IMG/VR virus record: IMGVR_UViG_3300025706_000022
Location: 1-64,000 of that record
Reading direction: 5' to 3' (one strand)
DNA: 64,000 bases
Source: a virus
Lineage: Duplodnaviria; Caudoviricetes
The notes below the pieces were generated by a model. It was not told the DNA's origin. It saw nothing but the letters and a program-made list of their open reading frames with translations, and ran no database searches. Positions 6,288 to 61,680 of this stretch are shown piece by piece (within the stretch, counting starts at the first letter, position 1; every line of letters begins with the position of its first letter). The translations under genes and the position numbers were made by a program.

Positions 6288-8258
6288 CTAATGGGTTTCC
6301 ATCCAACTGTAACCATGTTTTGCTTCTCCATCAGTGATCATAACATTAAACTCTTCAGCAGCATGCTTGAATGCCCAGTGAGCAATCTCTTTAGCCTTAT
6401 CAATAGTTTCAGGCGTATCCTTAACTAAGAATTGACACTCATCATGATAAATAGTAAGTGGTTGCCACCAGATGCCCTCATCATTAAGCCTCTTACACAT
6501 ATGATAAATAGCAGACTTCACAGTAACACTCTCAAACCGTTGCAGAAGGTAGTTCAATACCTTATGGAAAGAATCACTATAAATCTTACTACCATCAATA
6601 CCATAAATATAACCAAAGCCAGTATCACGCTTAGTAGATGCAAATACATTCTCAAGCTTCTTATTAAGTTCAGCCAAACCAACTACCTTCTCAGCAAACT
6701 TAGCCTTAATCTTAGCACCAAGAGTAGCATCACGCTTACCAGTGATATATAGCGCTGCTTTCTCTGCACCTACACCAAATAGGTATGCGTAAATAAATGT
6801 TTTAGCCTGTTTACGAGTTACTATAATATCATACCCAAGATCCTTCATTACAGCTGTAAGAGCATCAGCATTAGCTTGGTGAATATCACCATCAAGCACT
6901 AGATCAGTAAACTCTTGATTACCAAGATGATGACAGAATGCTCTCATCTGATTACCACTAGAATCACAGCCAATAATTACTGTGCCTGGGTCTGCTCTAA
7001 ACAGGTCTCTAACTCGTGCACCCCATGCATTATCTACCCCTGGTACATTGGCAATAGTCTTATGGGTCATGCGTCCAGTGGGTGTACCAAAATTCATTGC
7101 ACCACCATGAACTCTAGAGTTTTCATCACACGCTTCAATCCAACCCTTAAGAATATTGGCTCTTGAGTTAGTAGTCAAGTACTCATCGTATTGAACCCCT
7201 AGTGGACCTAGTAACTCTAACGATGATGAGCTAATTTTAGGAGAGACAATCTCCATTTTCTTAGTCTCTTCATTCCGTTTAAAGTTCCAATCATCAGGTT
7301 CCCATCCGATAGAGTATAACCAATGTTTAGCATCATCAGGGCTACTAAGTATGCGTCTATGGAACTCTACCCTACAATACGGCCCTTCTACTAAGCACCC
7401 TGAATACAGTCCGTTCTCAACTGGCACATTAAACCAATTAGCGAGATGTTGATGATAGTATCCTTTTACAGTCCACTTAGGGTACTTAGTCTCACCGACT
7501 GCAGTCCTAGACTGAAGACTGTCCATATCATGACCAGCAACCCTACTAATTTCTTTCGCAGGATCTTCTGCAAACGGTACATTAGATAAAAAGCTTTCAG
7601 TGTTAATACGATCTTTGATTATTACTTTAAGCCCCATTATTGGTTCAATGGTAGACTCTAACGCTCTTAGATCTACTTCCATTCTGGCAAGAAGATGTAT
7701 GGCTTGATCTTTATCGAATAGCCAACCCTTAAGCTCTGCCTCTGCCATGAATCTGGCTGATGCATGCTCATTGCGAATGCTAAGTTTGAGCATTGGGTTT
7801 TTAGCAGCTTCTTTTGTAAACTCATTGATAAGATACTTATATACTTTATGCCCCACATTAACGTCTTGAATACAATAAGTGATCATTTCCTCAGATAACT
7901 GTGACCAGTCGTTAAATTCAACCTTGAGGTCACCAAGAGCTTGGGACCAAACTTCTAACCCATGCCCTTTATACCCAAATCTCCTAAACTTCATCATTTG
8001 TGAAAATAACAGTGTATCATGCAAGGCTGTATTTACATTAGGGGACCAATTAAATAACTTCTTAAGAATATTCAGGTCAAAATTGATAAGATTATGCGCA
8101 GCGATTACTTTTGCATTATTAAGGTACTCTTTCCAAGATAAATCACCATCCTTAAATACCCTTATCTCACCTGAGTCCATATCCTTAGTAACCATAACCC
8201 ACATTTTTGTTGCAGTCTGAAGTAACCCATTTGTTTCTGTATCTAGGTAAATCCTCAT
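6288..8258 (-). CDS. polA: Family A (T7 gp5-like) DNA polymerase with 3'-5' exonuclease domain
   Basis: ExoI LDTET, AHNLINFD, YCIQDV; GTPTGR; motif A GCDSSGNQMR; motif B RKQAKTFIYAYLFG; motif C YHDE. Confidence 0.96.
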   Translation of the reverse strand: MRIYLDTETNGLLQTATKMWVMVTKDMDSGEIRVFKDGDLSWKEYLNNAKVIAAHNLINFDLNILKKLFNWSPNVNTALHDTLLFSQMMKFRRFGYKGHGLEVWSQALGDLKVEFNDWSQLSEEMITYCIQDVNVGHKVYKYLINEFTKEAAKNPMLKLSIRNEHASARFMAEAELKGWLFDKDQAIHLLARMEVDLRALESTIEPIMGLKVIIKDRINTESFLSNVPFAEDPAKEISRVAGHDMDSLQSRTAVGETKYPKWTVKGYYHQHLANWFNVPVENGLYSGCLVEGPYCRVEFHRRILSSPDDAKHWLYSIGWEPDDWNFKRNEETKKMEIVSPKISSSSLELLGPLGVQYDEYLTTNSRANILKGWIEACDENSRVHGGAMNFGTPTGRMTHKTIANVPGVDNAWGARVRDLFRADPGTVIIGCDSSGNQMRAFCHHLGNQEFTDLVLDGDIHQANADALTAVMKDLGYDIIVTRKQAKTFIYAYLFGVGAEKAALYITGKRDATLGAKIKAKFAEKVVGLAELNKKLENVFASTKRDTGFGYIYGIDGSKIYSDSFHKVLNYLLQRFESVTVKSAIYHMCKRLNDEGIWWQPLTIYHDECQFLVKDTPETIDKAKEIAHWAFKHAAEEFNVMITDGEAKHGYSWMETH

Positions 8259-10226: not shown

Positions 10227-10238
10227 TTTATAATCCTC

Positions 10239-10272: not shown

Positions 10273-10779
10273 TTAAAACACAGGTTCGTCAGGAAGGTTA
10301 TCATCACCCAACTCAGACGGGTCAATGACCTCAGTATCAACAGAGTCAAACTCTTCGAAGTCACCAGGCTTCTTGTGGTACACAATATGCTTGATAACCT
10401 GAACAGCCTGAAGACTAGTAGCAATACCCTTTACACCTTCAAAGGTGTAATCATACTGGAAGATACGGATATTACAAATAGACCCATTACCAATAGAATT
10501 CGGGTCAATGGCTACAAGATTACCATTGACAACCTTGGGAGGATCAGCCTTAGTGCCATCAGTCTTTACAGCGTTCTTGGCAATATTAGCGGTATAGAAC
10601 ACACCAACATCATCCTCTTGCATCTTAGTCTTGATATTAAGCTCTTTCCATTCTTTATTCTGTGCCTTATCACGAGTAAAGATTTGGATAGACCAACGCC
10701 CAGTCTTCTTGAGCTTAGTGCTGGGACGCTCAGGATTCAGTTGAGCAAAACGAACTTCTACGTTCTTTAAAATAGTCAT
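10273..10779 (-). CDS. Single-stranded DNA-binding protein, T7 gp2.5-like
   Basis: IGNGS..N.....Y.....G....LQAVQVI pattern; acidic tail ending in Phe (DDNLPDEPVF). Confidence 0.8.
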   Translation of the reverse strand: MTILKNVEVRFAQLNPERPSTKLKKTGRWSIQIFTRDKAQNKEWKELNIKTKMQEDDVGVFYTANIAKNAVKTDGTKADPPKVVNGNLVAIDPNSIGNGSICNIRIFQYDYTFEGVKGIATSLQAVQVIKHIVYHKKPGDFEEFDSVDTEVIDPSELGDDNLPDEPVF

Positions 10780-11057
10780 GTTTCTGCCTTTGCAGTTAGG
10801 TTAGGTTGCGCGTTATTCTGTAGATAAGCAGGAGGTTCCTCATGCCCTACAGGGTTATAGTGGAAGATAGACTTATGAAACCTATAAATCTTATCTATAC
10901 CACGGCCTTTGATGAAGGCAACCACTTCATCATAAGTTTTGAAATGTTGCGGTGCTTGAGTAATATTCTTTACACGTTGCCATTTACCAAAGATACCATG
11001 CTTAAGCGATACTTCCCAATCACCTGAATACGGATTTACTTCAATCTTAAATTTCAT
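10776..11057 (-). CDS. Hypothetical protein
   Basis: ATGA-coupled ORF. Confidence 0.6.
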   Translation of the reverse strand: MKFKIEVNPYSGDWEVSLKHGIFGKWQRVKNITQAPQHFKTYDEVVAFIKGRGIDKIYRFHKSIFHYNPVGHEEPPAYLQNNAQPNLTAKAET

Positions 11058-11281
11058 GGCGCATCATCTCCCATATCTTCTTCATCATCTTTAAAAATAG
11101 TATTCCAATCATTTTCTGTATAACCAGTCATAATAAACTCACGTTGGCTAGCAGTTAAATGAGGGAACACATCTTGTATCAAAGCGCTACTAGTAAGCCA
11201 CGCCCTATATTCCTCTTCAGAAATAGGAATATCAAGAGTATTTAACTGACGAGTAAGTGGGCTTCTCATAGTAATTAACAT
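11054..11281 (-). CDS. Conserved small phage hypothetical protein
   Basis: LIQD.FP.L....REF.MTG....W motif. Confidence 0.65.
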   Translation of the reverse strand: MLITMRSPLTRQLNTLDIPISEEEYRAWLTSSALIQDVFPHLTASQREFIMTGYTENDWNTIFKDDEEDMGDDAP

Positions 11282-11709
11282 TTTTCACTCTCCACATTAG
11301 ATAATGCTACAGATTTAAGAATATTAATGCAGCTCATATTAAACTTACTTGGAATATAGTAAGCAGTACCTCCACTGTTACTAGTAGTATTATACAGCAA
11401 AGTATATCTACCACCATATAGTTGTTCAGCTACTTCAAATACACCTGCAGTTTCAGTGATATCCTTCATCTTTTCTACAGCAAAGTTAACCACCTTAATA
11501 CATTTGAGGTCATTATAAGACTCAACTAAACATGGTGCACCTCCTAAGAGATAGTCCCAGTCAAATTCTACAAAGCCATTCACTTCTTTTGCCTCTAGCT
11601 TCCCTACTGCTACTGCCATACTAAGTATAGTAGCAAGAATATCTGCTACTACTTCAGCAGGCCAGGTTTCCATTAGCTCTTTAAGTTGCTTTGGTGCTTG
11701 TAGCATCAA
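11275..11709 (-). CDS. Hypothetical protein
   Basis: Coupled ORF. Confidence 0.55.
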   Translation of the reverse strand: MMLQAPKQLKELMETWPAEVVADILATILSMAVAVGKLEAKEVNGFVEFDWDYLLGGAPCLVESYNDLKCIKVVNFAVEKMKDITETAGVFEVAEQLYGGRYTLLYNTTSNSGGTAYYIPSKFNMSCINILKSVALSNVESEKC

Positions 11710-12563
11710 TCTTCCTTCTCAAAGTAGTTATTTACAACAGCTTTCTTTTCATTGTAGTACTCTTCAGGAACACTCTCCTCAATGGAAGTAAGCCAAATAC
11801 CACGAGTGAGTTCAAGAATCATATCACGATTATCATTCAGTAACTGAATAGAGAACTGGTGAGTAGGGTCTTTGCAGTAGTCAACACCTTCTTTCATTTT
11901 AAGCTTATGCTTGATAGTGTATGTAACTGCGCCTTGTACATCTGGAGGAACTGCTCTAGGGGAAATACCAAGTTGATTTGCAATCCAAACTTTAATCTTT
12001 TCCTTACCTTGTACAAGTTCCTTATGCTGTAACTGAGCTAACTCTGCAATAGCCTGGAATTGAGTCAGCATAGGCTTCATCTCTTCCTTCATCATTTCAG
12101 CGAACCCAGTCTTAATGAACTGCGTAATATGATCAGGATTTAAAAGTGCACCTGCAGTTACATTACCATGTACATCCTTAACTGCTTCACGGCCACCAGT
12201 CATGCGGGTATGTTCGTCAACAATAACATCCAAGTAATCTGGATATTGGCGGGCTATATACTTAATAGTTAAATCGTATGGTACAAGATAACAAGGATAG
12301 TATTTACCACGATCATCCTTATAACTATGTGGAATTAACACTGGCTTATCTGTAGAGATTTCAGTGGATTTGGCGTCGCCGACGGCGCTCACTCCACTTT
12401 GTTTTTCTACAAGTCTATTGAGACTACGCATACAATCTGCAGGGCGCTGTCCAGTAAAATCAGCAAGCTTCACCGAATTTACATAAATACCATCTTGATA
12501 TTGCACAAAAAGGTCGCTCAGTTTCTTTTGCATTGCTTCTTGATTACCGATCTTGGTATTCAT
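11706..12563 (-). CDS. Rha-like N-terminal DNA-binding/regulatory protein
   Basis: VNSVKLADFTG.R.....R....L and SYKDDRGK.YPCY.V, typical of Rha domains. Confidence 0.65.
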   Translation of the reverse strand: MNTKIGNQEAMQKKLSDLFVQYQDGIYVNSVKLADFTGQRPADCMRSLNRLVEKQSGVSAVGDAKSTEISTDKPVLIPHSYKDDRGKYYPCYLVPYDLTIKYIARQYPDYLDVIVDEHTRMTGGREAVKDVHGNVTAGALLNPDHITQFIKTGFAEMMKEEMKPMLTQFQAIAELAQLQHKELVQGKEKIKVWIANQLGISPRAVPPDVQGAVTYTIKHKLKMKEGVDYCKDPTHQFSIQLLNDNRDMILELTRGIWLTSIEESVPEEYYNEKKAVVNNYFEKED

Positions 12564-12586
12564 TTGTATTACTCCTATTGATTTAA

Positions 12587-12973
12587 TCAGATGAAATTAT
12601 CTGATTTGATACCCATGTGAGCCAAGCTAATATCTGCATCAATATGTGGTATGATAGCAGTATTCATTTCAATAAGCTTACGTAGTTTATCCTTAAGCTT
12701 CTCTGTTTCCTTTTGTTTAATACCAATAAAATCACGTTTATTTAAATCCTCAAGTATAGCCTTATACTCCTTAGTACTGCTCTTAAGTCTAGAAGATAGC
12801 TTTTCAAGACCCTCTAATGTTTGAATCTCCTCATTGGATGAAAGATGCATATCATTAATAACCTCTTCTTTAGTCATACCATACGCATCTGCAATAGCAT
12901 CTACTTTAAAGTATATCTTACCATCTATTACTCCAGTAAACTTATCTGGCATACCCACTCCTATAGAAAACAA
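12587..12973 (-). CDS. Hypothetical protein with possible KilA/Bro-like N-terminus and coiled coil
   Basis: IDGKIYF....IA.AYG; heptad-rich C-terminus. Confidence 0.5.
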   Translation of the reverse strand: MFSIGVGMPDKFTGVIDGKIYFKVDAIADAYGMTKEEVINDMHLSSNEEIQTLEGLEKLSSRLKSSTKEYKAILEDLNKRDFIGIKQKETEKLKDKLRKLIEMNTAIIPHIDADISLAHMGIKSDNFI

Positions 12974-15105
12974 TACTCAGCCTTAGCAACTTCTAGTATG
13001 TTGAAATTACCAGTCTTTACTTCCAAATCATCAATACCCAACTGTTTAAGAAGATCACCAAGAGGGTTATTGTAATACAACATAATGAAACTACTTCTGA
13101 CGTCTTCATGTAGTTGCTCCATACCACCAGCTAATGTACCAAATGAATCATGTACAGTTACTAGTGGCTCTTTACAATAATGTGCAGTAAGCATTAGATG
13201 TGTTGCATCCATACTATGCACAATATTTGGTGGTGCTCCAGTCTTTTGTTTAGAAGGACTTTCGCGTTTATTGTTATTATCTCGAATAGATAATGACAAC
13301 GTATCATCGTAGTATGGGGCCTTGACCTTAGTTAGTTCACCAATACGATAATCTTGCACTACTGGAAAATTAACTATAGGGGTATTCCATTCCAAAGATT
13401 TACCTACATTACCTTTGCGTTTACCAGCAGTTTCAAATAACTTAAGTAGTGCTACACTGGTAGGCATAGCCTGTTCCATGGTATCGTACACAATCTGGCC
13501 TAACCAAATAGCCCAAGCCCTGTCCATGCCTTCTAAATAATCAATACCATGCTTAGGAGCGTCTTCAATAATCTGTTCACCAGCCCCGAAACGGGTTACG
13601 CCATAGACCATTGTCATAACCCCTCTCTTAACAAGCTTTCTACGCTCATTAGCTTCTTTTACTTTCTTCCAATAAATTGGTGCAGCTTCTTTTATATGAG
13701 CTTGATACTTATGCTTAAATTCCTTTACTTCTTCATATAAATCCTTAGTCTCATCCTTATCAGCAGAGTGTATAATACCCTTACGTAGCCTACTGACTTC
13801 TTTTATTATCTCTTCTAGCTTATCAACATTATCTACCTTCATCTCATTTATACGTTTCCATACAAACTCAGAGATATACTTATAAAGATCTTGAACAGAC
13901 TTATTAGCGCAAAGATTAGTATGATAAGCAGTTTCTTCATCTCTAGTTAAAGCTGAGAGATGTTGACTTCCATTGTTGCTTCCGTCTACATAGCATATTA
14001 ACCGAGACACAAACTTCTCTACATCCTCACCGCTAGCACGCCATTGCTGAATGAGAGCTATTTCGATACAGGCAGCTAGAAATTGCCAGGGAGAATCTGC
14101 ATCCATCCAACCAGTAAACTCATCTGGGTTATTAGCATAGTTTAAGAATACGCCCATATTATCGTTAGCCCACTCTACTCTTTGCTCTAATGATAATTTG
14201 TCAGATTTAACACCATAAGTGGTCTTACCTGCCCAAGTTGATGCTAGGGCATGCTTAATCCACTTTTCACCATGAACACCAAGCTCCTTACCCTCAGCTA
14301 GTAGTAATAGACTCTTAGCTAAGTCAGTACTTTGTTCATTTAGAAAGCCAGTAGCGGGGTAACAACGGCCTCTAAAATCGAAGAAGTATTGATGATAAAA
14401 GACCTTGCTCTGTAGCTCTATACCTAGGTTTATGATAGTCTCAGCAAGTCTTTTCTTTGACTCTCTAGCCACAGGGTTAGAAGACTTGTAGTACTCCTTA
14501 AACACCTTAGTATTATCCTTAAAATGCTTAAGAGCTACTGATAGAATATTAGTATTGATTACCCATCCTCTATTGAATAATTTATGCATCATTTCAATAG
14601 CCATAGGCGTACTCGCCTCAGTCAACCTAGCCTTGCTCCTCCTTATTAGCTTCTTAATTGGAATAGGGCATGGCGTAAATGTAGGCTTGATTGCTGCTGC
14701 TCTAGGCCTTTCATCCCATAGGGATTTAATCTTAGACTCTTCTATATTTACAAAGATACCTTCATTATCTTCAATAATAACTTCGAATAAACCTACTAAA
14801 GAAAAGCACTTTAAGAAGAAACATCCAGTTTTACCTGCTGCATCTGGGAAATTCTCAAAAGAACTACCTGACTGCTTTAAAATAGTTTCACCTACAGTAG
14901 CAACGATAACATTTACATTTGTATTATCAGCCATTAGATATGTAGCTATCATATCAAATGCTATATCTGTAAGACGACTGATGCTTACGCCACTCTCTTC
15001 ATTTAAAAAATCCAGGAGAGGTGATTCAAATTGATCATTAAATGTCTGACTTTCTACTGCTGTATACAGTATCTCCCTCTTCACAACAAATTCTCCATTT
15101 GACAA
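12961..15105 (-). CDS. Single-subunit (T7-type) DNA-directed RNA polymerase with short N-terminus (RNAP2)
   Basis: FDFRGRCY; motif A DGSNNGSQH; motif B RKLVKRGVMTMVYG; PNIVHSMDATHL; motif C VHDSF. Start may be GTG 15084. Confidence 0.95.
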   Translation of the reverse strand: MSNGEFVVKREILYTAVESQTFNDQFESPLLDFLNEESGVSISRLTDIAFDMIATYLMADNTNVNVIVATVGETILKQSGSSFENFPDAAGKTGCFFLKCFSLVGLFEVIIEDNEGIFVNIEESKIKSLWDERPRAAAIKPTFTPCPIPIKKLIRRSKARLTEASTPMAIEMMHKLFNRGWVINTNILSVALKHFKDNTKVFKEYYKSSNPVARESKKRLAETIINLGIELQSKVFYHQYFFDFRGRCYPATGFLNEQSTDLAKSLLLLAEGKELGVHGEKWIKHALASTWAGKTTYGVKSDKLSLEQRVEWANDNMGVFLNYANNPDEFTGWMDADSPWQFLAACIEIALIQQWRASGEDVEKFVSRLICYVDGSNNGSQHLSALTRDEETAYHTNLCANKSVQDLYKYISEFVWKRINEMKVDNVDKLEEIIKEVSRLRKGIIHSADKDETKDLYEEVKEFKHKYQAHIKEAAPIYWKKVKEANERRKLVKRGVMTMVYGVTRFGAGEQIIEDAPKHGIDYLEGMDRAWAIWLGQIVYDTMEQAMPTSVALLKLFETAGKRKGNVGKSLEWNTPIVNFPVVQDYRIGELTKVKAPYYDDTLSLSIRDNNNKRESPSKQKTGAPPNIVHSMDATHLMLTAHYCKEPLVTVHDSFGTLAGGMEQLHEDVRSSFIMLYYNNPLGDLLKQLGIDDLEVKTGNFNILEVAKAEYCFL

Positions 15106-15120
15106 AAATAATATGATAAA

Positions 15121-15151
15121 AGTAGGAGGGAACGGCCCGAAGGCCGTCCCC
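15121..15151 (-). terminator. cUUCGg hairpin followed by CCTACT, just upstream of RNAP2
   Basis: Minus strand GGGGACGGCC-TTCG-GGCCGTTCCCTCCTACTTTT. Confidence 0.7.
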
Positions 15152-15721
15152 AGGTACTAATAGAGAATACCTTGCAAGACTCCTATAAATGTGTATATTA
15201 CCACAGTCATAACAGCCGTTGCAATAAAGCCTAATACTGATAGGTCTAAGATAAGCTTAAACAAGGCCCATAAATTAACATACACTATTCGGACTATTAG
15301 TGAGAATGTCATAATTACCTCTAAATATAGCCATTAACTCCAAGAAGTAACAGCAAGCCAATAAAGTGCTGCAAAGGCTATTTTAATTCCAGCTACTATA
15401 ATAATCACGAATATTGTAGAGGGAAGCATTATTGATAATACTAATAGAATAGTCAGCTTAATTAGCTCACCCATACTATTACCTCCTTAAGCCTAATAAA
15501 ATACCCACTTGGGACTATGGTTAACTTATTAGACACAATACTCATGTTATTACCTTTCTAGTGAAGCCCTACTATTTTGTCGAATCGTATATTTGCAGTA
15601 TCACGATGTTTTTTGAAACGAGCGATCAATGCTCTAATGAAGATTTCAGCCAGTATGGTTGACGTAGCTAACTGTAGCTCAAAGGTAGTTTTGAAAAGTG
15701 ATTTACCCTTCTTTTGGGCCA

Positions 15722-16243
15722 TCAATAACTCCACTGACTAAATTCTTCACTTAGAGCTACCAACTTAGACTTGATATAAGACTTAGTTGGCTGTACAACT
15801 GCAGTATTTAAAGGCTTGATCACGCCTTCATTTACTGGTACTACTACTCGATTATGCACAAGCTCCCCAACACTCGCTTCAGGAACCATTGCATTATTGA
15901 GCTTCTTTGTTACTTCAACATTCTGAGCAAGAAGCTGCTCATTCTGTTCTTTAAGTTCTACTACACGCTTAGAAAGCTCCTCATGCTCCTTACGAAGAAC
16001 TTTCAACTCGTTTACAACAGGAGTGATAGTTACAAGCTCAATAAACTGATCCTGAGTCATGATATTATTGAGATCCAGATACTTCATGATACTCTCACTG
16101 TTGGTGATCACACCTACCAACATTGCAGCACTAACAATACAGATAGCTGCAAGTGAGACAAGAGCCAATACTATCCCTTGAATAGCTTCAAAGAAGTAGA
16201 TTGCAAAGCGAGCAACAGGATTGTACTTAACGATGGCGTTCAT
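15722..16243 (-). CDS. Membrane-anchored coiled-coil protein
   Basis: Hydrophobic segment IVLALVSLAAICIVSAAMLVGVI followed by heptad repeats. Confidence 0.65.
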   Translation of the reverse strand: MNAIVKYNPVARFAIYFFEAIQGIVLALVSLAAICIVSAAMLVGVITNSESIMKYLDLNNIMTQDQFIELVTITPVVNELKVLRKEHEELSKRVVELKEQNEQLLAQNVEVTKKLNNAMVPEASVGELVHNRVVVPVNEGVIKPLNTAVVQPTKSYIKSKLVALSEEFSQWSY

Positions 16244-16261
16244 TTGATTCTCCTAAACTAA

Positions 16262-16480
16262 TTAAAAATAGAACTTACGACGTGCTTCATACTTCAGTCT
16301 TGCAACCTTCTCCTCATAGAGTTCAGACTGATACTTCTTGAGACGTGATGCTTTGTCTTCAATGAAGATACCAACTGTATACTTTATGGCACTACTGAGA
16401 ATGTACCAGACTCTTTTAAACGGTCTAACCTTACTTACCTCATAAACTCTTGTTGCTTCCCCTTCTATTACATCTCTCAT
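16262..16480 (-). CDS. Hypothetical protein
   Basis: Coupled ORF. Confidence 0.55.
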   Translation of the reverse strand: MRDVIEGEATRVYEVSKVRPFKRVWYILSSAIKYTVGIFIEDKASRLKKYQSELYEEKVARLKYEARRKFYF

Positions 16481-16680
16481 TTAGACTTACTCCGATTAGT
16501 AGTAGGCCTAGCTGGGGCAAATGATTCAATAACCTTGTTACCGTAACGGTCATGAACTTGATATCCACCATTAGAGCTGTGGTAGATCTTAGCGCTATCC
16601 ATTGGAGTTACTGGCCCTTTGTAACCCTCATAAGCACAACCAGAGGTGATAAGAGTTAACACTATAAGTAAAAATTTCAT
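16477..16680 (-). CDS. Small predicted lipoprotein
   Basis: MKFLLIVLTLITSGC lipobox-like signal. Confidence 0.65.
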   Translation of the reverse strand: MKFLLIVLTLITSGCAYEGYKGPVTPMDSAKIYHSSNGGYQVHDRYGNKVIESFAPARPTTNRSKSK

Positions 16681-17063
16681 TGCATCTGCTCCATAAGTTT
16701 TTCAACAGAGTTCACATAATTCATCATAGTTTGATAACCCTTTTCAGAGTCTGCACTAGTAGCACATTCCTTGTTAAACCCTGAAACCAGCTTATCACGG
16801 TTCTTGTACTTCTTAAATGCATTCACTACACCAATTGAGTACTTGCTCATAAAAGTCATAGCAGTTCTTTGCGGTATAGTAAGGGCTACATACTTCTTTT
16901 CAAAGGATAATTCGGCAGCTTCCATTGAGTTACCGCTTTTATCTATATCGTTGTAAGTTTCAATCAGGCCACCAGTGATTTCACAGAAATTAGCCTTTGA
17001 AATACCAGCAAAAGCATTGAAAGAAACAAGAGCAGCAATGATCATAATCATCTTCTTAAACAT
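16677..17063 (-). CDS. Predicted secreted/periplasmic protein
   Basis: Sec signal MFKKMIMIIAALVSFNAFA; two Cys. Confidence 0.65.
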   Translation of the reverse strand: MFKKMIMIIAALVSFNAFAGISKANFCEITGGLIETYNDIDKSGNSMEAAELSFEKKYVALTIPQRTAMTFMSKYSIGVVNAFKKYKNRDKLVSGFNKECATSADSEKGYQTMMNYVNSVEKLMEQMQ

Positions 17064-17137
17064 GGTAATACTCCTAAGTTAAATTGACATAGACACTCTC
17101 CCGAGTGTTTCGCTCATTTAGAGCTCTTCAGTATGTC

Positions 17138-17356
17138 TTACTTTCCTTCCACATAGTATGGCCACACAATGGGTACAGACTGATGCCCATTAAGCAAACA
17201 CACAATGTGAATATTGTTTCGCTCTTTTTCAGGATACTTGCTAAGAGCATTATCAACTACGCGGCTCATATCACCATGGTAAGTGGTATGGAACAAGTCA
17301 TACTCCTGAGTCTCAGGGTTATAACAAACTGCAGTTACCTTTTTGCTCGTGTTCAT
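17138..17356 (-). CDS. Hypothetical protein
   Basis: ORF with AGGAG RBS. Confidence 0.55.
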   Translation of the reverse strand: MNTSKKVTAVCYNPETQEYDLFHTTYHGDMSRVVDNALSKYPEKERNNIHIVCLLNGHQSVPIVWPYYVEGK

Positions 17357-17749: not shown

Positions 17750-17763
17750 TTATTTCTCCTTAA

Positions 17764-19122: not shown

Positions 19123-19139
19123 ATATCATATAAGATGGA
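19123..19139 (-). promoter_or_regulatory. Repeated 17-bp motif TCCATCTTATATGATAT, candidate phage-RNAP promoter (copy 1)
   Basis: Identical copy at 21814-21830 and a 15/17 copy at 19705-19721; all intergenic and upstream of minus-strand starts. Confidence 0.6.
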
Positions 19140-19704: not shown

Positions 19705-19721
19705 ATATCAATTAAGATGGA
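19705..19721 (-). promoter_or_regulatory. Candidate promoter motif TCCATCTTAATTGATAT (copy 2)
   Basis: 15/17 match to the other two copies; directly upstream of the HNH RBS. Confidence 0.55.
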
Positions 19722-21247: not shown

Positions 21248-21308
21248 ATACTTCTCCTTTTAGGAGGCCCAGGATAGAATTATTCCAGGCCTATTACTAC
21301 TTAACTAA

Positions 21309-21813: not shown

Positions 21814-21830
21814 ATATCATATAAGATGGA
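21814..21830 (-). promoter_or_regulatory. Candidate promoter motif TCCATCTTATATGATAT (copy 3)
   Basis: Identical to 19123-19139; lies between the last tail gene and the secreted-protein block. Confidence 0.6.
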
Positions 21831-33000: not shown

Positions 33001-33032
33001 AGTAGGAGAGAAGGGGCCGAAGCCCCTTCTTA
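33001..33032 (-). terminator. cUUCGg hairpin followed by CCTACT, after the tape measure gene
   Basis: Minus strand AGAAGGGGC-TTCG-GCCCCTTCTCTCCTACT. Confidence 0.7.
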
Positions 33033-36000
33033 TCACCTAGATCCGTTTTCGTATGCAATCTGTCTCGTACCAGAAGTAATTTGAGGCATCATTCTGATAA
33101 TCTCTGCACGTGTTTGTCTACTAATGTCACCAGTAATAGCAATATTAACAGTAGAAGAGTTAGGTGTAGGCTCATTCTTTTTCTGATTCATAAGTTCTTG
33201 ACCCATATTAATCACACCGCCATTAGCATAACCTGGTACAATTGCTTGACCAAAGTTAATTGCGTCTAACAGCCCTCTATTAAGGGCAGTAGATTTAGCA
33301 TTAACAATATATTCACCATTAGAGACACGAGCAAGAATAGAATCTGAGCGACCAGTACCAGGGCCGTTTATTTTACCAGTATTACCACCACCAGCAAAAG
33401 CCCTAATTGCACCACCACCAGCAAATGCTTGCACATATCCACCATCGGCAAAGAAGGATTTAATCACATTAAACAACATCTTAGCGCCTTCAATCACACC
33501 GTCTATTAACCCACCCATATCAAAAGATTCAAATACCTTCATTATACTACCGCCAAAATCTTGTGCACCCGATATAATACCATCAAAACCAGTTTTAAAC
33601 GATGCACTAACGGTTTCAAAGAAGCCTTCTACATTAAGGTCATCCATTCCAGCAGTCTGTTCTGCTAACATCTTAGATTGCTCACTACCAGGAGTAGTGC
33701 CTAGGCCTGTTAGCGCTTCCATAAAACCACCCTTACCACCGCATATTGCTTCAGCTTGCTTAACAACGCATTCACCACCAGTACCAGCTGCTCCAGCTCC
33801 AGTAAGTCTCTCAGCCATACTTAACCCAGGCTTAGACTGACCAAAAGCCTCAGTAGCAACTCCACCTACTTTAGATTGACCAGATGTTTGGCCAACTTCA
33901 GATAATGGTCTGCTGATATCAGTAACAGGCTTTTCTTCCTTAGTAGAAGTGAACAAGGAACCAATACCAGTACGTGCTTTCTCACCCATTTTAATAAAGG
34001 CAGCATCACCTTTTCCTGCAAAATCATCCAGCATTGTATAGAAACCTTTAAGCAGATTGTCCATAAAGCTAGTAGTCATTTGTTGCAAGAATTGGGTAGA
34101 CAAGGTTTCCCACATCTTTTGTGCTACTTCCTTAAATGAGCTCTTGCCCTGCATAGCGCTTACTAAGCCCTCATTAAATTCTTTCTTAAAGTTTTCTGTA
34201 AATGTTTTACCAAAAGCAGTAGGTTGAAGGGTCTTTGCTCCCTCTTCTTCTGCGTTTTTAGGCAAAGCATCTTTGATATTACCCTTAAGCTTACCTATAT
34301 TCTTACTAATCCTATTCTTAGCAAAGTCAGAAGCAACAGCTAGCTTATCAGTCTCTTGTTCCATCAAAGATAATGAGGTTGTAATCATATCTAAGACTTC
34401 AGGAGTATCTAACAGCCCTTTAAAATCTTCTTCTGTAAGAGTAGGAAGATTAGCACTAGCAAGAGCACTATTAAGTTCTTCAAAAGAAGCAACTAATGAT
34501 ACTGCATTCTCTATCTTATCCTTAATCGTAGCTATAGGAGTACTAGTACCAGCAGGTGTAAACTGATTACCACCACCAGAATAGTTGTTAAACTTCTCAG
34601 CAGCAGAATCCTTAACCGCAGCAGCCTTCTTAACGGCCCTAGTACCAACACCCTTAACTGTATCTACAAGGCTATTAGCACCTTCTTCAAGTTTCTTTTG
34701 TATAACAGCTGTACCATTAACTACATTTACTGCAGCCTCTTGCATAAACTGCTTAATAGTGTCCCACTTACGTTGAGACTGAGTAGGGTCAGTATTACCA
34801 GGCAAGCTAGTCCATACATTTTTAAGCTTATCAATAGCGATTTCAAAACGACCAGCTAATACATCATCTAATGCACCAGCTCGTTTAATAAGAGCAGTAG
34901 CAACTTCAGTCTGAGACTGGGCACTAAAGTCAGAGACACCCAACTTAGGTGCTATATCATTGTAAGTGGTACCAGTGATTTGAAATGCACCGGCTGCAGT
35001 AGATTTACGACCTTGTTTGTCAATAAAACCAACTTTATTGGGGTGCTTTGACTCATCATCAAAGTAACCACCCGAGCCAACAATACGATTAAAGGCAGAA
35101 CCACTAGTAGCATCACTATTACTATGTTCGGACTTCATTAGTGTTTCTAAGAAGGTGAGTAATCTCTCTTGTTGAGTAAGGCTAGAGACCATCCCATCTA
35201 CACCGTCAGATATCTTAATGCTTGTTTCTTTTACCGCATCTGTAACCTGAGTGCCTACATCTCCAGATGTACCAGCTACAGCACCCTTCTTAGGCATTTC
35301 AGCAGCAGCAGCACTTGGCACAAAGATATCAAGGACATAGCTAGTAGCACCCTTAATACCATCACCCATTTTCTTAAATATACCAGTAAACCAACCGGCA
35401 ATAGACTTAAGCCCAGTCAATATACCATTCCAGATAGCTTGACCCATAGATGTAAAGTTAGCTACAGTAAAGAATTCACTCATAGCTTTCCAGAAACCAT
35501 CAGACCAAGCTTTTATTTGATCCATAAATATGAACAGGCCTTCTGGGAAACCAGCGTTAAATACCTTCTTAACAAAATCAATAGCAGCATTAAACTTACC
35601 GGAGATCCAATCCCAAGCAGCTACAATGCCATCATAAACTAACTTAGAGATTCCTTTTATTGCAGGCCAGATTTCATCCCAATTCTTCCAGATACCATAT
35701 GCAATTGCACCTAAGGCAGCAATTCCTGCTACAAGAGCAGCAACAGGCACACCTAACATAGCAGCACCAGTAGCAAAGATACCTACAAAAGCAACCTTAA
35801 TAGCTAAAAAGATAGGTGCCAGCATTGGCAAAAAGAGAGCGCCTAGGGCGGTCATAATAGCACCGAGAGAGGAAGTTATTACAGACATAAAAGCTCCCCC
35901 AATAGCTGCACCAATAGCAGCAGCACCAACTTGTAAGGCTAGTTTGCTAGTACCACTTACCCCTTCTTTATCAGCTATCCTCTCACCAGCAGCAAAGCCA

Positions 36001-40870: not shown

Positions 40871-40966
40871 ATTATACTCCATAGCAGGGCACTCTGTCTG
40901 AATAAACAGTGGGCAAGAGTCATTTAAGTAATCATTACCAGCGATCACCCCCTTTATTACTACCTA

Positions 40967-45052: not shown

Positions 45053-48000
45053 TTAGCCTATTCCATAGAAGCCTTTATCATGCTTCCAAAAATCAGGCGG
45101 TATATCTTCTAGAATATCCTCAGCTTTGAGAATATCCTGTTCAGTCATAAGTCTTCCACCAACTTTACTTTTTCCAGCTATTGGAATAATACCTTTTTCA
45201 ATGGCCTCTTCCAAATACTGATCATAAAGCTCTTTAGGTAATCCACGCTCACGCAGAAGATCTAATGTAGCCTTTACTGTATTTTTCGTAACAGCATCAG
45301 CATACATTTTTCTAATAGCCGTCTTAGCCTTAATCATATCACCAGCATTAGTGAAGAAAGCCGAAATATTCAACAAAGGTCGTTAGTCTTTGCCCGTTAC
45401 TGTCGAGTTAGTTAATAATTCTTCCAAGTATTACCAATTCGTATTTGACGAATGGTAGAAGGGTGCGATCCAAATTCTACAGCTATTTCTGCATCTAACT
45501 TTCCATTTTTGATACATTCTCGTATATAAGGTACATCCTCTGCAGTTATCTTTCTAGTCCTAGGTGCACCATTATAACGACCAGGGATAGTCAGACCTAG
45601 ATGCTTCCAGTTGTCACCAATCCTAATAGCGTTTATAGATTGCCTAGTAACACCGTATTCATCTGCAATCTCTTGATCTTTTTTGCCAGCAAGCATTAAT
45701 TTAATTATAGTAGGTATTTCTGACTCTACTAATACCGACTCAACCCTATGTGAACCGCGTGGCATTAACCCAGTATCGTATGCGTGCTGAACATTTTCAC
45801 TGCGAGTTGCCCATTCTAGATTAATTACATGGTTATGTAACCTATTCCCATCAATATGATTTACATCTGATTTAGAAAAGGGATTTGGTATAAAAGCCTT
45901 TGCAACCAACCTATGTAGCTTTTCTGTGCGTCTAACACCATTGTATGATATATGAAACTGCCTATAACCACCTACGATATTACCTAATGTGATGCACCCA
46001 TTAGAGCCACAATATAGTCTACCATGGTTACTAATAGAATAGTTTGCATCACCAACTTGTTTCCATTCTTCTTGCATGTTTACTCCTTGTGCTCGACAGC
46101 ACTGCTGCATATTACTATGCAGACTAGACTATATCTTCAAAGTAAATACATGTATTTACGATGTCCCCCGTTTCCACTCACTTGAGTGTACTGGCGCAAT
46201 GCCATAGTCGTTACACCTTCCTTATTTCTAAGGATTGGCTCGGTATTGTCCTAACGAAGGAGTTTCACCGAATTAGAGGGATTTAACCACAACAAAATTT
46301 ATCGTGGATACTAGTTGTTTCTATACCATTACGCTTACCCCATAAAGCAAAGTTCTTAACTAGAGTAGCATCGTTAGAGTGATTGCCATTGACGGCATAT
46401 GCCGTTCTAGCAGACACTGCATCAGCTACTTCATTTATTTTATTACTCTTATTAACTAACTCTTCAAACCAAGTGGGATCAGTTTTATTATCTACTTGAA
46501 TAATATTAGTGATCCAGTTACCATCAGCATCCTTATAATTAAGCCTTTCCTCAAATCGTTGGGTATAATATTGCTCCAACACACTACCATCAAGGTTCAC
46601 CCAAGGCACATGTGTCCAACTCTTAGGTTGCTTATTGGGTAACCCCAACTCAGCTATATCAATATCTTTGTAAACATCACCCACCTGAAGCTTAATATCA
46701 AACTTCTTACCAGTAGGTCTATAGCCCTTGTCCTTAACCCCAAATAGTATATCAGAGATGGTACTATCGGGTTTATATCCAGGTATACGTTTAAGGATTT
46801 GTTCTCGATAAGATACCTTTGGATCTATTCCTAGTATCCAAGCTAGCACAGGATGAGGCTTAGCCCCTTCTTTATACTCACCAAATGCGGTTTTCTTCAT
46901 AAGGCTTACCCAATCAAACTCAGCTTTAGAAGGCTTTGCTGTTAACAGAAAGTCTTGTGCCAGCCTACCGAAGAACTTAGTAAAATCATTCAAAATAGGT
47001 ACACGATTAGACATATGCTCAGACATGATTGCACCTATCTGAGCAAAATCTTTGGGCGTAACTACTTCATCATAATCCCTAGTAAGCTTCTCTACAAAAT
47101 CCTTTGTTTTAGGATCAAGGAACCATAAGTCAGACATCAAGTCATCACCTGGCCTAGTTCCACTATCAAATATGTCTTTGACCTGTTTACGAAGCTGCAT
47201 TAGTTCGTCTGCAGTATCTTGATCCCAACGTGCTATTTTAGCAGCACGGGCAGAGATTTCACCCAATACAGCATCGCGTTCCTCAGCTTTAATTACTAAG
47301 ACACCATCATCTTTACCTAAAGCCTTAGCTAATTTCTTTTCTACATTCATGGTAGCAGTTCTCTGTCCGGCGCCGTATAGAGAGACCATGTTATGCGCTT
47401 TTGACAATGTGTTAACAAGGGGTCGTTAGTCCCCTGTCATAATTTATTAGTAGTTCTTCCAGGTATTTCCTCTACGAATTTGGTTTATGGTTGCAGTTGC
47501 TACACCAAACATAGGTGCAATATCGCAATCACGTAATGTGCCAAATAAGCTTCGAATAACCGGTATATCTTCTCCAGTTAACTTCTTAACTGGGCCATTA
47601 CCTATAATCGGCTGTCTTTCAATAAATCGCCAAGTACGGTTACATCGAATATCATCAATTGTATTTGGGGCCACGTTATACTTTTTGGCAAGAGTAATAT
47701 TTCTATCACCAGCCTTTAAGGCATCAATAATTTCATGAACTTCTGTTTCTAGAAGGATATGCATATAGCTACCTTCTCCAGAAGCAATTAACCCTAATTT
47801 TACAGCATGCTCATTATTCTCTGTAGGAGTACACCACTCTAGGTTACTAGACTTATTATTAAGCTTATTACCATCAATGTGGTTAGCCCAGGGCTTACCA
47901 TCTACCCTAGGTATAAAGGCCCTAATAACCAATTTATGAACATCGATAGTTATCCTATCCTTACGAGAGGTAAACTGTATACTAACTTGTAAGTATCCTC

Positions 48001-51000
48001 TAGCAGTAATGAAGGGATTAAGAATGAAATCAGTGCTATTGTTGCGAATACGCCCCAGATTGCTGACACTATACATGCCTTCTGTGTCTGGGATAATACG
48101 AAATTCTTCTGTCATAATGACTCCATGGGTGTGTAAATTATGCTGCATATTACTATGCAGATCAGACTATATCTTCAACAAACAATGTTTGCTGTCCCGC
48201 GTTTCCACTAGACTTCTAGTGTATGAGATTCATAATCCGTTCTGGACCGTATTCTCTAGTCGTTGAACCTTCCAAAGAGTCCCCTCTAAGGCTTGGCTGC
48301 TGATTGTCCTTTAACGAAGGAGTTTCCAGCAATTAACGGGATTTTACAAGGCCACAAGTTTAGCCTTCCTTAAATCCTTCTCGCTTAGCCCCAATCTTTC
48401 ATTAAGCTTTTTAAACCTAGGATCATTAAAGGTCATAGAAGCAATCTCGTCATAGAGACGCCGCTTCTGGTTAGTAGGAACAACATTACTAAGTTCTGCT
48501 AATTGCTTATTCTTAGTAGACAATGCAATAATCTGAGCACCAGAAGATGAAGCATCTTGCTCTAGAGCTACTTTAATCATATAATTATCAAGTGGAGTAA
48601 GATCTTTGTAACTGCCACCTAAAAATTTATCAATGCGGTATTGTTCAAGGGCAAGCCTAAATAACTTTCCCTGTTCTTCAGCATCCGCCATCTGAACGAT
48701 CTTAGATTCAAGGATATCACGAATATCCTGAGGCTTTTGTCTTTCTATACGTTTACCTAATAAAACAAGATCAGCACGCCATTTATCTGCAATCTTCTGC
48801 CTACCAGTTTGAGAGAGACCATTAAAGCGTCCTTCAAACTCATCACTTAGGCCACCTAAGAAACCACCTATCTGGTCTTGTAGGTTATAATATCCATCAA
48901 TACCTAAGGGTTTAGCTTCTGGTGTATTTAAGAAAGGACGAAAGGACTCACCAGATTGTGGTCCAATGTAGCCGCTATCATATATGCGACCGCGATGATC
49001 AATGAAAGCGTGATTACTAAAAGACATATCGTTCTTAACATAATGTTCCATAGCCTTAAATCTATCGTATGCATCACCACGAGCAGTCATGTGATCACGA
49101 TAATGATTCAAATCATTAAAATACTTAGCCTTACCCTTATCGTCTTGGAAATCCAATAACTTTCTCGTAAACCCATAAAACTCAGGATCTACTTTATACT
49201 TACTATTGCTATACCAATTAAGGGCATCTGCTAATGGTTCGTCAATTAGCTCTGCAGGTATTTCAGTGAAACTACTTGAAGATGTAATTGGTATTTGTGT
49301 ATCATATCCGCCCTTAGCAAAATATGTTTTGAACCCAGGTTTAATATATAGTTGGTTATCATATCTATTATTCACACCAATACGATAGCCTACATCGATA
49401 GCACGATTAAGGTATGAGTAGTGCTTAATACGAGCATCGGTAATCCTAAGATTTACACTAAATGTATCGTAGTATTGACCAAAGTATTGACCACTCATAC
49501 GACTACGCATACGCCTTTTCTTAACACCAAAAGTATCTAGTGTATAAAATCCTACTTTTTGAGCATAATCTAAGATTTCTACACCTGCATCATACCATTC
49601 TTTTTTAGATCCACGAAAATTAGTAGTATTAAATAGATCTCTTCCTAATTCAATGGCTAGTTGATCCCTATCAGGGGCATCATCCATTGCTAACCGTTTA
49701 GCAAACCTCAAATAGAACTGCTGAGTTTCAAACTTACCTAATCCCTGAAATACTCTACGCATTTGAAGTTTCATAGGTAATTGTGTTTTTAAGAAGATAT
49801 CTACTGTAGAACGTAACTGTAGTGCTATAACGGGTAATTGTCTAGCTTCCCATAGATTACGCTCTTTAATATTAGCAATAAAATTCTTGCCCAAATCATC
49901 TAATTGTATAGGGCCAAGAACAGGATCAAGATACTCACCTTGCTTAATCTTGTAGAAGAAGTCAGAATTATTTCTTAACTGTGTCTCAATAAACTCTGAC
50001 ACGTTAGTAACACTATTCTTCATTTCTGAGTTAAGAACAGCCTTAAGATTACCCCAAGGCTTTCCTTGTTTACGAAAACGCTCAAATGTTACACGAAGAT
50101 TATCAGTGACAACTGCAGCCTCATTCATGCCTACAGACTTCTGTATTTCTATCTTGAAATCTTGTAGGAACTTCTTATCATCTGCGGTTAATACTGTGCT
50201 TTCATCAATAAGCCTAACAGCGCGTTTATCAGCAGCCATATTAGGTTGATAGATGCGGGCATCCTCTCTACGCTTAGTAATAGGATTATATATTAGCTGA
50301 TCTTCAGTTGGAGGGCTGTTTAGAACCCTATTCTTAGTACCAGCCTTTACATGAGGTAGAATACCACGATAGTTAGTAACACTTAAAGTACCATTTAGCT
50401 CACCAGACTGTAGTTTATAATACTCTACGAGTTTGCTAACGGCCTCTTTATCTCTAAGTATTTCAAGAGGGGATGTATATCCCAGTGTAAGTGTGTCCAG
50501 TCTTTCTTTTGCATTCGCGAATACTTTACTAGTAGCTTCTACGCTACCGTTATAACCACCTGCTGTATTATTATCACCAGTTAGTAGCTTAAGCTCATTG
50601 AGACCTACACTAGCACCCTTAGGTGTTATAAACCTCTCAGCTGTAAGCTCATTATTTTGGAACATCTTAAGGCGATGCATATCTCCTAGATGCATTAGCT
50701 GAATTCTATCTGGTTGTTTCTTTAACCAATCATTATAAGAAATAGTGTCATAAGGTGTTCCAGTAAAATAACTAGAGGCATACTTATCATAGGCTTCAAT
50801 CTCTGCTTCCGACATTCCAGCTGTATTACGGGCTCTAGTGGCTCTTACAGAATCAACTTTTGCTAAGTCTGCCCAAGCCTTAGGAACAGGTATTGTAGTA
50901 GACCTACACCTATAATGTTGTGGTGGTAAATGACCAGTATCAGAAACTGGATAGATATTTCCATCCATATATCTGCATACTGGAGTAGTTCTAGTGTCTA

Positions 51001-51634
51001 ATACCGCGGCGTATTGGTATCCTTTCAAGTATTTGCTATTCTCTGCATATACTTGCTGGTCTACTTGTGCATACACACTAGTAATCCCGGTAATAACAAT
51101 ACCTTCACTATGTACACGAGTAAGATTAAACGTTTTAGATACACGTTTAATCATTTGTTCTTCAGTTAAGCCTTCAGCTAGGCCGCCTCTAATAGCAGCC
51201 TCTATACGCTTACGCTCATTTAAGCCAATGCCTTTCCAACCTTCTGCAAGAGTCTTATTAGCATAGAGAGGTTGTGTTAATACTATCTCGCTAGCAATAG
51301 CACGAGTAGGTCTCTCAGGCTCAAAGAAATCTCTGAATGACTTATTGAGAGTATCTAAAGAACTTACTTGTGCTTGATTACCAAACTCAATAAAACTTTT
51401 TGCATTATGGCGATACGCTGTTTCTGTAAATCGCCTTATCTCTGCATCTGTTGCAGGGCTGATCGGCATTTCTTTTGAATAGTTTCCAGGGAGTATTGCG
51501 AGCATTCTAGTTTCATGGTCATCAACTAATGCTAATGTTTGTGCGGTAACTCGCTCTGTATAAAGTCGAGTCATAGCAGCATCATGTATGGTTTTATCAC
51601 CAGCAACCTCGACCGCTGTCTTTTCTACTTTCAT
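45053..51634 (-). CDS. MuF/SPP1-gp7 head protein fused to T7-type RNA polymerase; join(48362..51634, 46301..47404, 45053..45361), 1561 aa
   Basis: MuF motifs AVLD.RTT..C...DG and PPQHYRCRS; RNAP DHRGRIY; motif A DASSSGAQ. Splicing restores motif B RKA|SKAHNMVSLYG and motif C IHD|AF. Confidence 0.9.
45362..46300 (-). mobile_element. Group I intron 2 (IA-type), inserted in RNAP motif C
   Basis: P1 CCACGAU/GUUGUGG with U.G at the splice site; P3 TCCCTC/GGGGGA; P4 TCGGT/ACCGA; P7 GACTA/TAGTC; AAGATATAGTCT; terminal G. Confidence 0.93.
45412..46077 (-). CDS. Intron-encoded NUMOD4/HNH homing endonuclease
   Basis: LHRLVAKAFIPNP...VNHIDGNRLHN...NLEW; two C-terminal HTH-like repeats; start ATG 46077. 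Confidence 0.92.
   Translation of the reverse strand: MQEEWKQVGDANYSISNHGRLYCGSNGCITLGNIVGGYRQFHISYNGVRRTEKLHRLVAKAFIPNPFSKSDVNHIDGNRLHNHVINLEWATRSENVQHAYDTGLMPRGSHRVESVLVESEIPTIIKLMLAGKKDQEIADEYGVTRQSINAIRIGDNWKHLGLTIPGRYNGAPRTRKITAEDVPYIRECIKNGKLDAEIAVEFGSHPSTIRQIRIGNTWKNY
47405..48361 (-). mobile_element. Group I intron 1 (IA-type), inserted in RNAP motif B
   Basis: P1 AAGGCU/GGCCUU with U.G at the splice site; P3 TCCCGT/GCGGGA; AATTGCTGGAAA and AATCAGCAG; TCAACGACTA; AAGATATAGTCT; terminal G. Confidence 0.94.
47447..48115 (-). CDS. Intron-encoded NUMOD4/HNH homing endonuclease
   Basis: VHKLVIRAFIP...NHIDGNKLNN..SNLEWCT..EN..HA; two C-terminal HTH-like repeats; start ATG 48115. Confidence 0.92.
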   Translation of the reverse strand: MTEEFRIIPDTEGMYSVSNLGRIRNNSTDFILNPFITARGYLQVSIQFTSRKDRITIDVHKLVIRAFIPRVDGKPWANHIDGNKLNNKSSNLEWCTPTENNEHAVKLGLIASGEGSYMHILLETEVHEIIDALKAGDRNITLAKKYNVAPNTIDDIRCNRTWRFIERQPIIGNGPVKKLTGEDIPVIRSLFGTLRDCDIAPMFGVATATINQIRRGNTWKNY

Positions 51635-61653: not shown

Positions 61654-61662
61654 TCCCCTAAT
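61631..61662 (-). terminator. Rho-independent terminator after the Ala-rich gene
   Basis: Minus strand TAGGGGAATGGC-CACAA-GCTGTTCCCCTATTTTT. Confidence 0.7.
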
Positions 61663-61680
61663 TTACTACCTAGCTACTCT

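Follow-up and report, generated by a model that had tools for sequence, protein, structure and literature searches.

We analyzed the first 64 kb of the IMG/VR virus record IMGVR_UViG_3300025706_000022 (hereafter the window, 64,000 nucleotides), a 75,571-bp genome rated complete that belongs to a long-tailed phage (siphophage) from activated sludge. Genes across the window all lie on the minus strand, and megablast of 10 kb against phage records gave no match. The window encodes two RNA polymerases (RNAPs): a compact single-subunit enzyme of the T7 family, RNAP2, whose gene occupies 12961..15084 (−), and a polymerase fused to a MuF domain, whose gene lies between the portal and scaffold genes. 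RNAP2 heads a block of genes for a single-strand DNA-binding protein (SSB), a DNA polymerase, and a helicase. An earlier reading of the sequence, made without database searches (the sequence-only reading), had regarded RNAP2 as the second polymerase of a cascade similar to that of phage N4.

The RNAP2 gene and its predicted structure

The RNAP2 frame is open up to a TTG codon (ORF 12961..15105 (−), 714 open codons counted from TTG). Because TTG 15105 has no ribosome-binding site, GTG 15084 has a GGAG at a normal distance in front of it, and the contig's public gene call (P0003) gives 707 amino acids (aa), the protein is probably 707 aa long, and residues are numbered according to this version. 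RNAP2 matches PF00940 of Pfam with an E-value of 1.7e-76 (258.3 bits, cut-off 22) and phrog_414 with an E-value of 1e-112. Its residues 130–706 align to T7 RNAP residues 262–882 (blastp, 26% identity, E 2e-50), and residues 133–707 align by profile to T7 269–883 (hhalign, E 3e-57). The D-x-x-G-R residues D236/R238/R240 correspond to T7 D421/R423/R425, D367 of motif A to D537, K486/Y494/G495 of motif B to K631/Y639/G640, H623 to H784, and H645/D646 of motif C to H811/D812. Every one of these catalytic residues, whose T7 equivalents were placed by hhalign, is invariant in a 33-sequence family alignment, and RNAP2 is very probably an active polymerase.

An AlphaFold model of RNAP2 built on the same alignment has a pLDDT of 90.3 and a pTM of 0.84. 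Its best structural matches are T7 RNAP and the human and yeast mitochondrial RNAPs, with Z-scores of 35–43 over 580–640 aligned residues (Foldseek, VIA-align), followed at lower scores by N4 mini-vRNAP (Z 22) and the gp16 chain of N4 RNAPII (Z 21). The entire model (1–707) maps to T7 72/75–883 and to human POLRMT 434–1230. RNAP2 is ~170 aa shorter than T7 RNAP and lacks T7 residues 1–~70, the AT-rich recognition loop segment, and subdomain H (~T7 150–215), as seen in a MAFFT alignment with T7; unlike the mitochondrial enzymes, it has no PPR domain or N-terminal extension. The retained N-terminal part is modeled as a five-helix bundle corresponding to the helical promoter-binding core. Thumb, palm, and fingers are kept in the model, and two further elements are identified by position only: a short β-hairpin (101–112) at the place of the T7 intercalating hairpin as judged by alignment offset, and a long hairpin (581–607) at that of the T7 specificity loop, which has T7 length in this genome. 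RNAP2 also carries the aromatic C-terminal foot of T7 and mitochondrial RNAPs, with which it shares the fold, the catalytic motifs, the intercalating hairpin, and the specificity loop.

N4 RNAPII consists of two polypeptides, its thumb is truncated, and it shows no activity on duplex DNA (PMC4496689). As modeled, RNAP2 is instead a trimmed T7-type polymerase, unlike the split and stripped N4 enzyme, since it retains the promoter-binding core, the intercalating hairpin, the thumb, and a specificity loop of T7 length. Closeness between polymerases was judged by pairwise E-values and Z-scores, and by these RNAP2, a single chain, is far nearer T7 RNAP (E 2e-50, Z 35–43) than gp15/gp16 (E 0.003 and 0.15, Z 21).

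Several statements of the sequence-only reading hold up against these data. The intact polymerase with motifs A, B, and C is supported by PF00940 and by the invariant catalytic residues, 707 aa being likelier than the 714 aa first proposed; the shortening relative to T7 is mainly N-terminal, as the extent of the model testifies; divergence from the MuF-fused enzyme is confirmed by a remote blastp match (E 2e-4); and RNAP2 does lie upstream of SSB and DNA polymerase, with five other genes between RNAP2 and SSB. The resemblance to N4 RNAPII that it also put forward is not supported.

A MuF-fused polymerase gene interrupted by two group I introns

The second polymerase begins in a 1096-aa ORF (48344..51634) that carries a MuF domain (Pfam) and ends just past RNAP motif A. 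Exon 1 of the gene (48362..51634 (−), 1091 aa) comprises the MuF domain, the D-x-x-G-R motif, and motif A. It is followed by group I intron 1 with an HNH gene (47405..48361 (−)), inserted beside the codon of the motif B lysine, and by exon 2 (46301..47404 (−), 368 aa), which holds motif B, the equivalent of the specificity loop, and motif C through H-D. Group I intron 2, again with an HNH gene (45362..46300 (−)), is inserted directly after the codon of the motif C aspartate and precedes exon 3 (45053..45361 (−), 102 aa). The two introns score 99.7 and 89.2 bits against Rfam, and an HNH gene follows each. Exon limits were fixed by colinear alignment with the uninterrupted 1463-aa protein of roseophage DSS3_VP1 annotated only as 'minor head protein-like', and they also fit the P1 pairings, in which each 5′ splice site has its U·G, and the G that precedes each 3′ site. 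Joined, the exons form a continuous frame of 1561 aa.

The MuF-fused polymerase matches T7 RNAP in blastp with E-values of 5e-7 and 1e-5 and has no detectable likeness to N4 mini-vRNAP in the same type of search; hhalign of a 3-row alignment of the enzyme against T7 gives a weak match (probability 20%). Its catalytic motifs are all kept across the clade at 49–66% identity, which implies selection on polymerase activity. The region equivalent to the specificity loop was mapped to T7 725–768 (blastp, E 1e-5) and is equal in length and nearly identical in sequence in the 7 of 7 genomes checked, including three in which the RNAP2 loop deviates (see below).

One odd joint in the RNA contigs, with one side at the 5′ splice site of intron 2 (46301, within a 3-nt ambiguity), was judged unreliable; the opposite side falls within exon 3, 163 nt in, the support amounts to only 27 nt, and adapter sequence is nearby. 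The RNA contigs have no cover at ~60.0–61.3 kb and above 62.7 kb. In G003, a related genome of 92 kb, the MuF-polymerase gene is broken further, after motif A and inside the N-G-N-H-S region (C1:33658-36227, 31800-32600), which suggests additional intron sites.

The polymerase pair in related phages

RNAP2 belongs to a large metagenomic family of 700–790-aa polymerases found on 62–92-kb viral contigs, its closest homologues having 51–63% identity. It is a single chain here and in 20 relatives with an uninterrupted gene (693–785 aa). Among the 20 RNAP2-bearing records searched, both polymerases are present in 18 of the 18 relatives that are at least 90% complete; there the MuF-fused polymerase is mostly one uninterrupted ORF of 1528–1581 aa. 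Gene order is constant: terminase, portal, MuF-polymerase, scaffold, capsid, tail, small genes, RNAP2, SSB, and DNA polymerase.

The RNAP2 gene of the closest relative, G021 (IMG/VR 3300010429_001459), is split by an intron-like insert of ~280 nt at motif B (C1:23837-24115; loci L088/L089), the parts on either side having 53% and 77% identity. In its 3′ part, this insert has a match to the cores of the group I introns in the window, so RNAP2 genes are intron targets as well. This genome and G021 share a 25-nt intergenic stretch with 96% identity (window ~62175-62199 (−) and G021 oriented 22853-22877), which is single-copy in each and includes a 4-bp stem with a GTGA loop; other non-coding sequence is little shared.

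Judged by RNAP2, the best cultured relatives are the roseophages DSS3_VP1 and DSS3_PM1 (Naomviridae), at 37% identity, and the Pelagibacter siphophage Kolga, at 30%. DSS3_VP1 has the same module order, and its uninterrupted MuF-polymerase is 26–33% identical to the one described here. Neither enzyme is described in the Naomviridae papers examined, and the founding paper of that family does not mention RNA polymerase, and a survey of polyvalent proteins reports virion RNAP modules in N4-like phages only. The same MuF-polymerase split by an HNH gene is found at 25771-31144 of EBPR siphovirus 1 (JF412302.1, a partial GenBank entry of 2011), where the split runs through the 'head protein', the HNH gene, and the next ORF, and the polymerase is annotated only as 'head protein' and 'hypothetical protein'.

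Candidate promoter motifs accompany the two polymerases

A 22-nt motif, termed class A, occurs three times in this genome, at 19.1, 19.7, and 21.8 kb. Its 11-mer core, ATCTTATATGA, is identical in the four complete relatives compared and is preceded 8–9 nt upstream by a GCGG element; no conserved hairpin was seen. Copy 1 of the core lies at 21817..21827 (−), a variant copy with 2 changes at 19708..19718 (−), upstream of an HNH gene, and copy 3 at 19126..19136 (−), 4.05 kb upstream of the RNAP2 start, from which it is separated by ~14 small ORFs and a tRNA-Leu gene. Motif counts were made over 21 genomes, this one and 20 related records. The exact 11-mer is present in 21/21 of them, with 51 matches, all on the coding strand, against 1 match for the reversed control, and with one to four copies per genome. 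Forty-one of the 51 copies fall within 7 kb upstream of RNAP2, where ~5 would be expected; each of the 21 genomes has at least one copy in that zone, the nearest at a median distance of 1.85 kb. In DSS3_VP1, the loop region of the MuF-polymerase differs and class A is absent. This covariation suggests that class A is the promoter of the MuF-fused polymerase and that the copies in the window are candidate early promoters.

Class C, of the CCCGTTAAATTAACCC type, gives 72 matches against 0 in the control; they are spread over 18 of 21 genomes and again confined to the coding strand. Its sites are dispersed, occurring before scaffold/capsid genes, SSB, and others, and EBPR siphovirus 1 has one at 4427. 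The genomes devoid of class C are this one, G003, and G020, exactly the three with a divergent RNAP2 specificity loop: a loop type with a 12–13-aa insertion is common to the 18 class C genomes, whereas the loops of this genome and G020 have T7 length and differ in sequence, and that of G003 carries substitutions. In G002, G004, G009, G010, G013, G015, G017, and G018, class C is often found 60–90 nt upstream of class A, and such neighbors look like tandem promoters for the same early genes.

DSS3_VP1, whose 732-aa RNAP2 has a short loop, displays 13–14 coding-strand copies of a motif of its own, TAGG..CGTTAAAGAGG, followed each time by a GGGG hairpin and a CTCC leader. By analogy with this motif, we identified four sites in the window, termed class D, of the TAGGTAGTAA..GGGG type: 61655..61672 (−), 40948..40966 (−), 33022..33039 (−), which runs directly into a GGGG hairpin and CTCCTACT leader, and the weaker 21288..21303 (−). 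All four are intergenic and sense-only and run into a hairpin/leader like that of DSS3_VP1, and they are candidate RNAP2 promoters in this genome.

The RNAP2 gene itself is preceded by a GC-rich hairpin with a UUCG loop and a C-rich CTCCTACT leader (15121..15151 (−), dG −23.8 kcal/mol, z −4.8), located 16 nt before TTG 15105 and 37 nt before GTG 15084. The same architecture recurs at 33001-33040 and, less closely, at 10237-10262. k-mer and blastn-short searches within this genome alone returned mostly ribosome-binding sites.

In two relatives, G001 (oriented 34054, 38513, 38545, 38602) and G005 (oriented 44650), the stretch shortly before RNAP2 harbors a cluster of a hairpin-like repeat of another kind, CAGCCCTG..GGCTCTAAA; absent from this genome, it may be a terminator or a regulatory element.

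A proposed relay of two T7-family polymerases

We favor, with moderate confidence, a reading in which RNAP2 is the non-virion polymerase of a relay between two distant T7-family enzymes. The MuF-fused polymerase would be packaged, as is assumed from its MuF domain and genome position, ejected with the DNA, and would initiate at class A, that is, at the GCGG element, the 8–9-nt spacer, and the 11-mer core. Class A sites would drive a block of small early genes ending with RNAP2 and two conserved small genes, p144 and p75. RNAP2, via its own specificity loop, would then recognize another set of promoters, which differs between lineages: class C in most relatives, TAGG..CGTTAAAGAGG in DSS3_VP1, and probably the four class D sites here. 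These sites would precede replication and structural genes, giving transcripts that start with the GGGG hairpin and a C-rich leader. RNAP2 may also reinforce its own operon, since class C lies near class A in relatives and the same leader stands before RNAP2 here. The cascade of two polymerases foreseen by the sequence-only reading has comparative support, without its N4-type second enzyme: the pair is conserved in 18/18 relatives, two promoter-like motif classes each track one enzyme, and in 21/21 genomes RNAP2 is preceded by the motif class that goes with the MuF-fused polymerase, which fits what a relay led by a virion polymerase would predict.

A wider reading, which we hold tentatively and would place a little below even, extends the relay to a widespread clade of ~75-kb siphophages that would rely on two T7-family enzymes for their entire programme and do without host RNA polymerase, with a frozen MuF-polymerase promoter and an RNAP2 loop and promoter co-evolving by lineage. 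Equally tentative is its reach, which would take in hundreds of uncultured genomes, the 2011 GenBank sludge phage, and the Naomviridae with uracil DNA (dU-DNA).

Several points weigh against the relay, which as a whole is deduced from sequence. Kinship of the genomes makes the motif counts overstate the number of independent events, and the covariation is based on DSS3_VP1 and three deviant lineages. Class D is a post hoc definition drawn from four sites, and it is absent from G021, the closest relative; no promoter motif common to this genome and G021 was found. Class A could be a site for another conserved phage protein. The AlphaFold model of the MuF-polymerase domain, built on the 3-row alignment, has a pLDDT of 40 and is unusable, so that the loop assignment in this enzyme is one of sequence alignment. 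A full MuF-polymerase needs two splicing events, and no clean spliced joint was seen in contigs from four RNA runs on 44001-64000, which include unspliced intron sequence. Finally, RNAP2 is without the AT-rich recognition loop segment of T7, so that unaided promoter recognition may fail, which leaves room for a helper protein.

In a first alternative, host RNA polymerase would read the early genes, including RNAP2, and RNAP2 would do the rest, as in T7 and the siphophage Xp10 (PMC4496689). The MuF polymerase domain would then have an ejection, priming, or anti-host role or act as a late intracellular enzyme, and class A would be a regulator site or an unusual host promoter. The case for packaging comes only from the MuF fusion and the head-module position, and sigma-70-like sites occur throughout the region (49 vs 39.7 expected in a simple scan), both of which this scheme accommodates. 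We nevertheless consider it unlikely: the class A core does not resemble a sigma-70 promoter and contains no hexamer of the −10 kind with the key A2/T6, it stays identical across phages of 40–46% G+C whose hosts presumably differ, its presence tracks the MuF-polymerase loop, and the motifs of that polymerase are all kept at 49–66% identity.

The relay might also be a strict analogue of that of N4, with a reduced RNAP2 unable to open or recognize duplex promoters and dependent on a phage recruiting factor, either a small neighbor gene or SSB. The loss of T7 1–~70, the AT-rich loop segment, and subdomain H is compatible with such a dependence, most T7-like RNAPs other than T7 use cofactors (Table 1, PMC4496689), and p144 and p75 are conserved in the RNAP2 operon. 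However, RNAP2 is a single polypeptide that keeps the thumb, the intercalating hairpin, and a complete specificity loop, this loop covaries with a sequence motif of duplex type, and the enzyme is far nearer T7 than gp15/gp16. Relatives of N4 gp1, gp2, and N4SSB were not found (tblastn, nothing below E 1; remote homologues possible), and the two genes adjacent to RNAP2 are not conserved. We therefore regard a strict N4 analogue as improbable. That RNAP2 serves mainly as a primer-maker or origin activator for the adjacent replication module is very improbable: it does head the SSB, DNA polymerase, and helicase block, and T7 and mitochondrial RNAPs prime replication, but the motifs covarying with the RNAP2 loop are scattered and also precede scaffold/capsid and tail genes.

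Comparison with known systems

Relays in which a virion polymerase acts first have been described in N4, jumbo phages, crAss-like phages, and P23-45. We know of no described relay of two right-hand (T7-type) enzymes in a long-tailed phage with a MuF carrier. What is new here is the conserved polymerase pair, class A, the covariation of class C with the RNAP2 loop, and the conserved loop of the MuF-fused RNAP. The proposed relay resembles those of N4, P23-45, and phiKZ/AR9 but would combine other parts.

N4 (Schitoviridae) uses the virion RNAP gp50, then RNAPII (gp15+gp16), and then host RNAP (PMC4496689). As in N4, there are two T7-family polymerases, one of them inside a large protein of the virion module, early promoters are few (three in N4, one to four candidate class A copies per genome here), and the second polymerase would be encoded among early genes. 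Unlike N4, the phage is long-tailed, and the presumed carrier is a MuF portal-associated head protein rather than the 3500-aa gp50; RNAP2 is one chain and nearer T7; class A is devoid of a conserved hairpin and gp1/gp2 relatives were not found; and the motifs linked to RNAP2 also stand before structural genes, so that host RNAP may be dispensable late.

The Thermus siphophage P23-45 employs a virion RNAP fused to the tape measure, gp96, followed by a non-virion RNAP, gp64 (PMC10770324). The arrangement proposed here is similar in that, in a siphophage, a virion polymerase fused to a structural protein would transcribe pre-early genes including that of the second polymerase, and in that two dissimilar promoter motifs can be assigned, provisionally in our case, one to each enzyme. 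The P23-45 enzymes are, however, of the two-barrel (cellular) type and not right-hand T7-type, the fusion partner is the tape measure and not MuF, and its late genes use host RNAP. A host-independent programme with two polymerases, as suggested here, is also found in the jumbo phages phiKZ and AR9, which have virion and non-virion multisubunit RNAPs (PMC7598289, PMC9209446); those enzymes are multisubunit, and the phages are jumbo myophages. Like AR9, the cultured relatives DSS3_VP1 and DSS3_PM1 have dU-DNA (PMC8323127), and DSS3_VP1 differs from this genome in its promoter-like motifs.

Candidate promoters can now be named for both enzymes, and DSS3_VP1 on Ruegeria pomeroyi DSS-3 provides a cultured system. 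A natural set of loop and promoter variants is available; if the wider reading is true, each of these polymerases comes with a promoter to match. Few single-chain members of the family are smaller than the 700-aa enzymes, which, together with their predicted promoters, could possibly serve for in vitro transcription. Should the dU-DNA of the cultured relatives be shared by the whole clade, the system would join AR9 as a second, independent example of transcription that is self-sufficient on uracil DNA.

Neighboring genes and other features

Downstream of RNAP2, the start of p128 (12587-12973 (−)), which has weak winged-helix matches, overlaps the RNAP2 stop, and is followed by p285 (11706-12563 (−)), with a weak Rha/Ant-like match. 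Neither has a homologue in the five relatives compared. Being specific to this genome, this pair of genes is unlikely to supply a core specificity factor, the role that the sequence-only reading had offered to one of the nearby small genes. The next gene, p144 (11275..11709 (−)), is a conserved member of the RNAP2 operon, its homologue being first after RNAP2 in G001 and G014 and second in G021, and the small protein p75 (11054..11281 (−)) is conserved downstream of RNAP2 in three relatives. No match to p144, p75, or the small early genes was found in Atlas or Pfam, and a complex prediction of RNAP2 with p144 scored 0.00, which speaks neither for nor against binding. Further downstream lie a gp2.5-like SSB (10273..10779 (−)), conserved in all relatives compared, and a family A DNA polymerase (6288..8258 (−)). 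Free-standing HNH endonuclease genes are located directly before the DNA polymerase gene (8255-8938 (−)) and behind the variant class A copy (19165-19683 (−)).

Contigs of three activated-sludge metatranscriptomes contain 68, 31, and 23% of the words sampled from 12500-22000; these are assembled contigs and prove neither transcription nor its absence.

A gene of the dCMP/dCTP-deaminase family (327-803 (−), PF00383, E 3.5e-22) is shared with the dU-DNA phage DSS3_VP1. In Naomviridae, dU in place of dT goes with Dcd and a YfbR-type dTMP phosphatase; no such phosphatase was found in this genome, nor any PF12917 match. Two copies of a 21-mer, termed class B, lie at 62233-62253 and 59916-59936 (−); they are identical at 20 of 21 positions, have CGTG/CACG ends, and are each preceded by an A-run and CCGG. 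The copy at 59916-59936 is followed by ~300 nt composed almost entirely of A/T and by three GCACTTAGC repeats, and class B is possibly an origin. Finally, a 34-nt stretch recurs with 94% identity at 56992-57025 and 53547-53580 (−), where it spans the leader, ribosome-binding site, and first codons of two genes, one for a 663-aa Ig-like protein and the other a 92-aa ORF just after the terminase.

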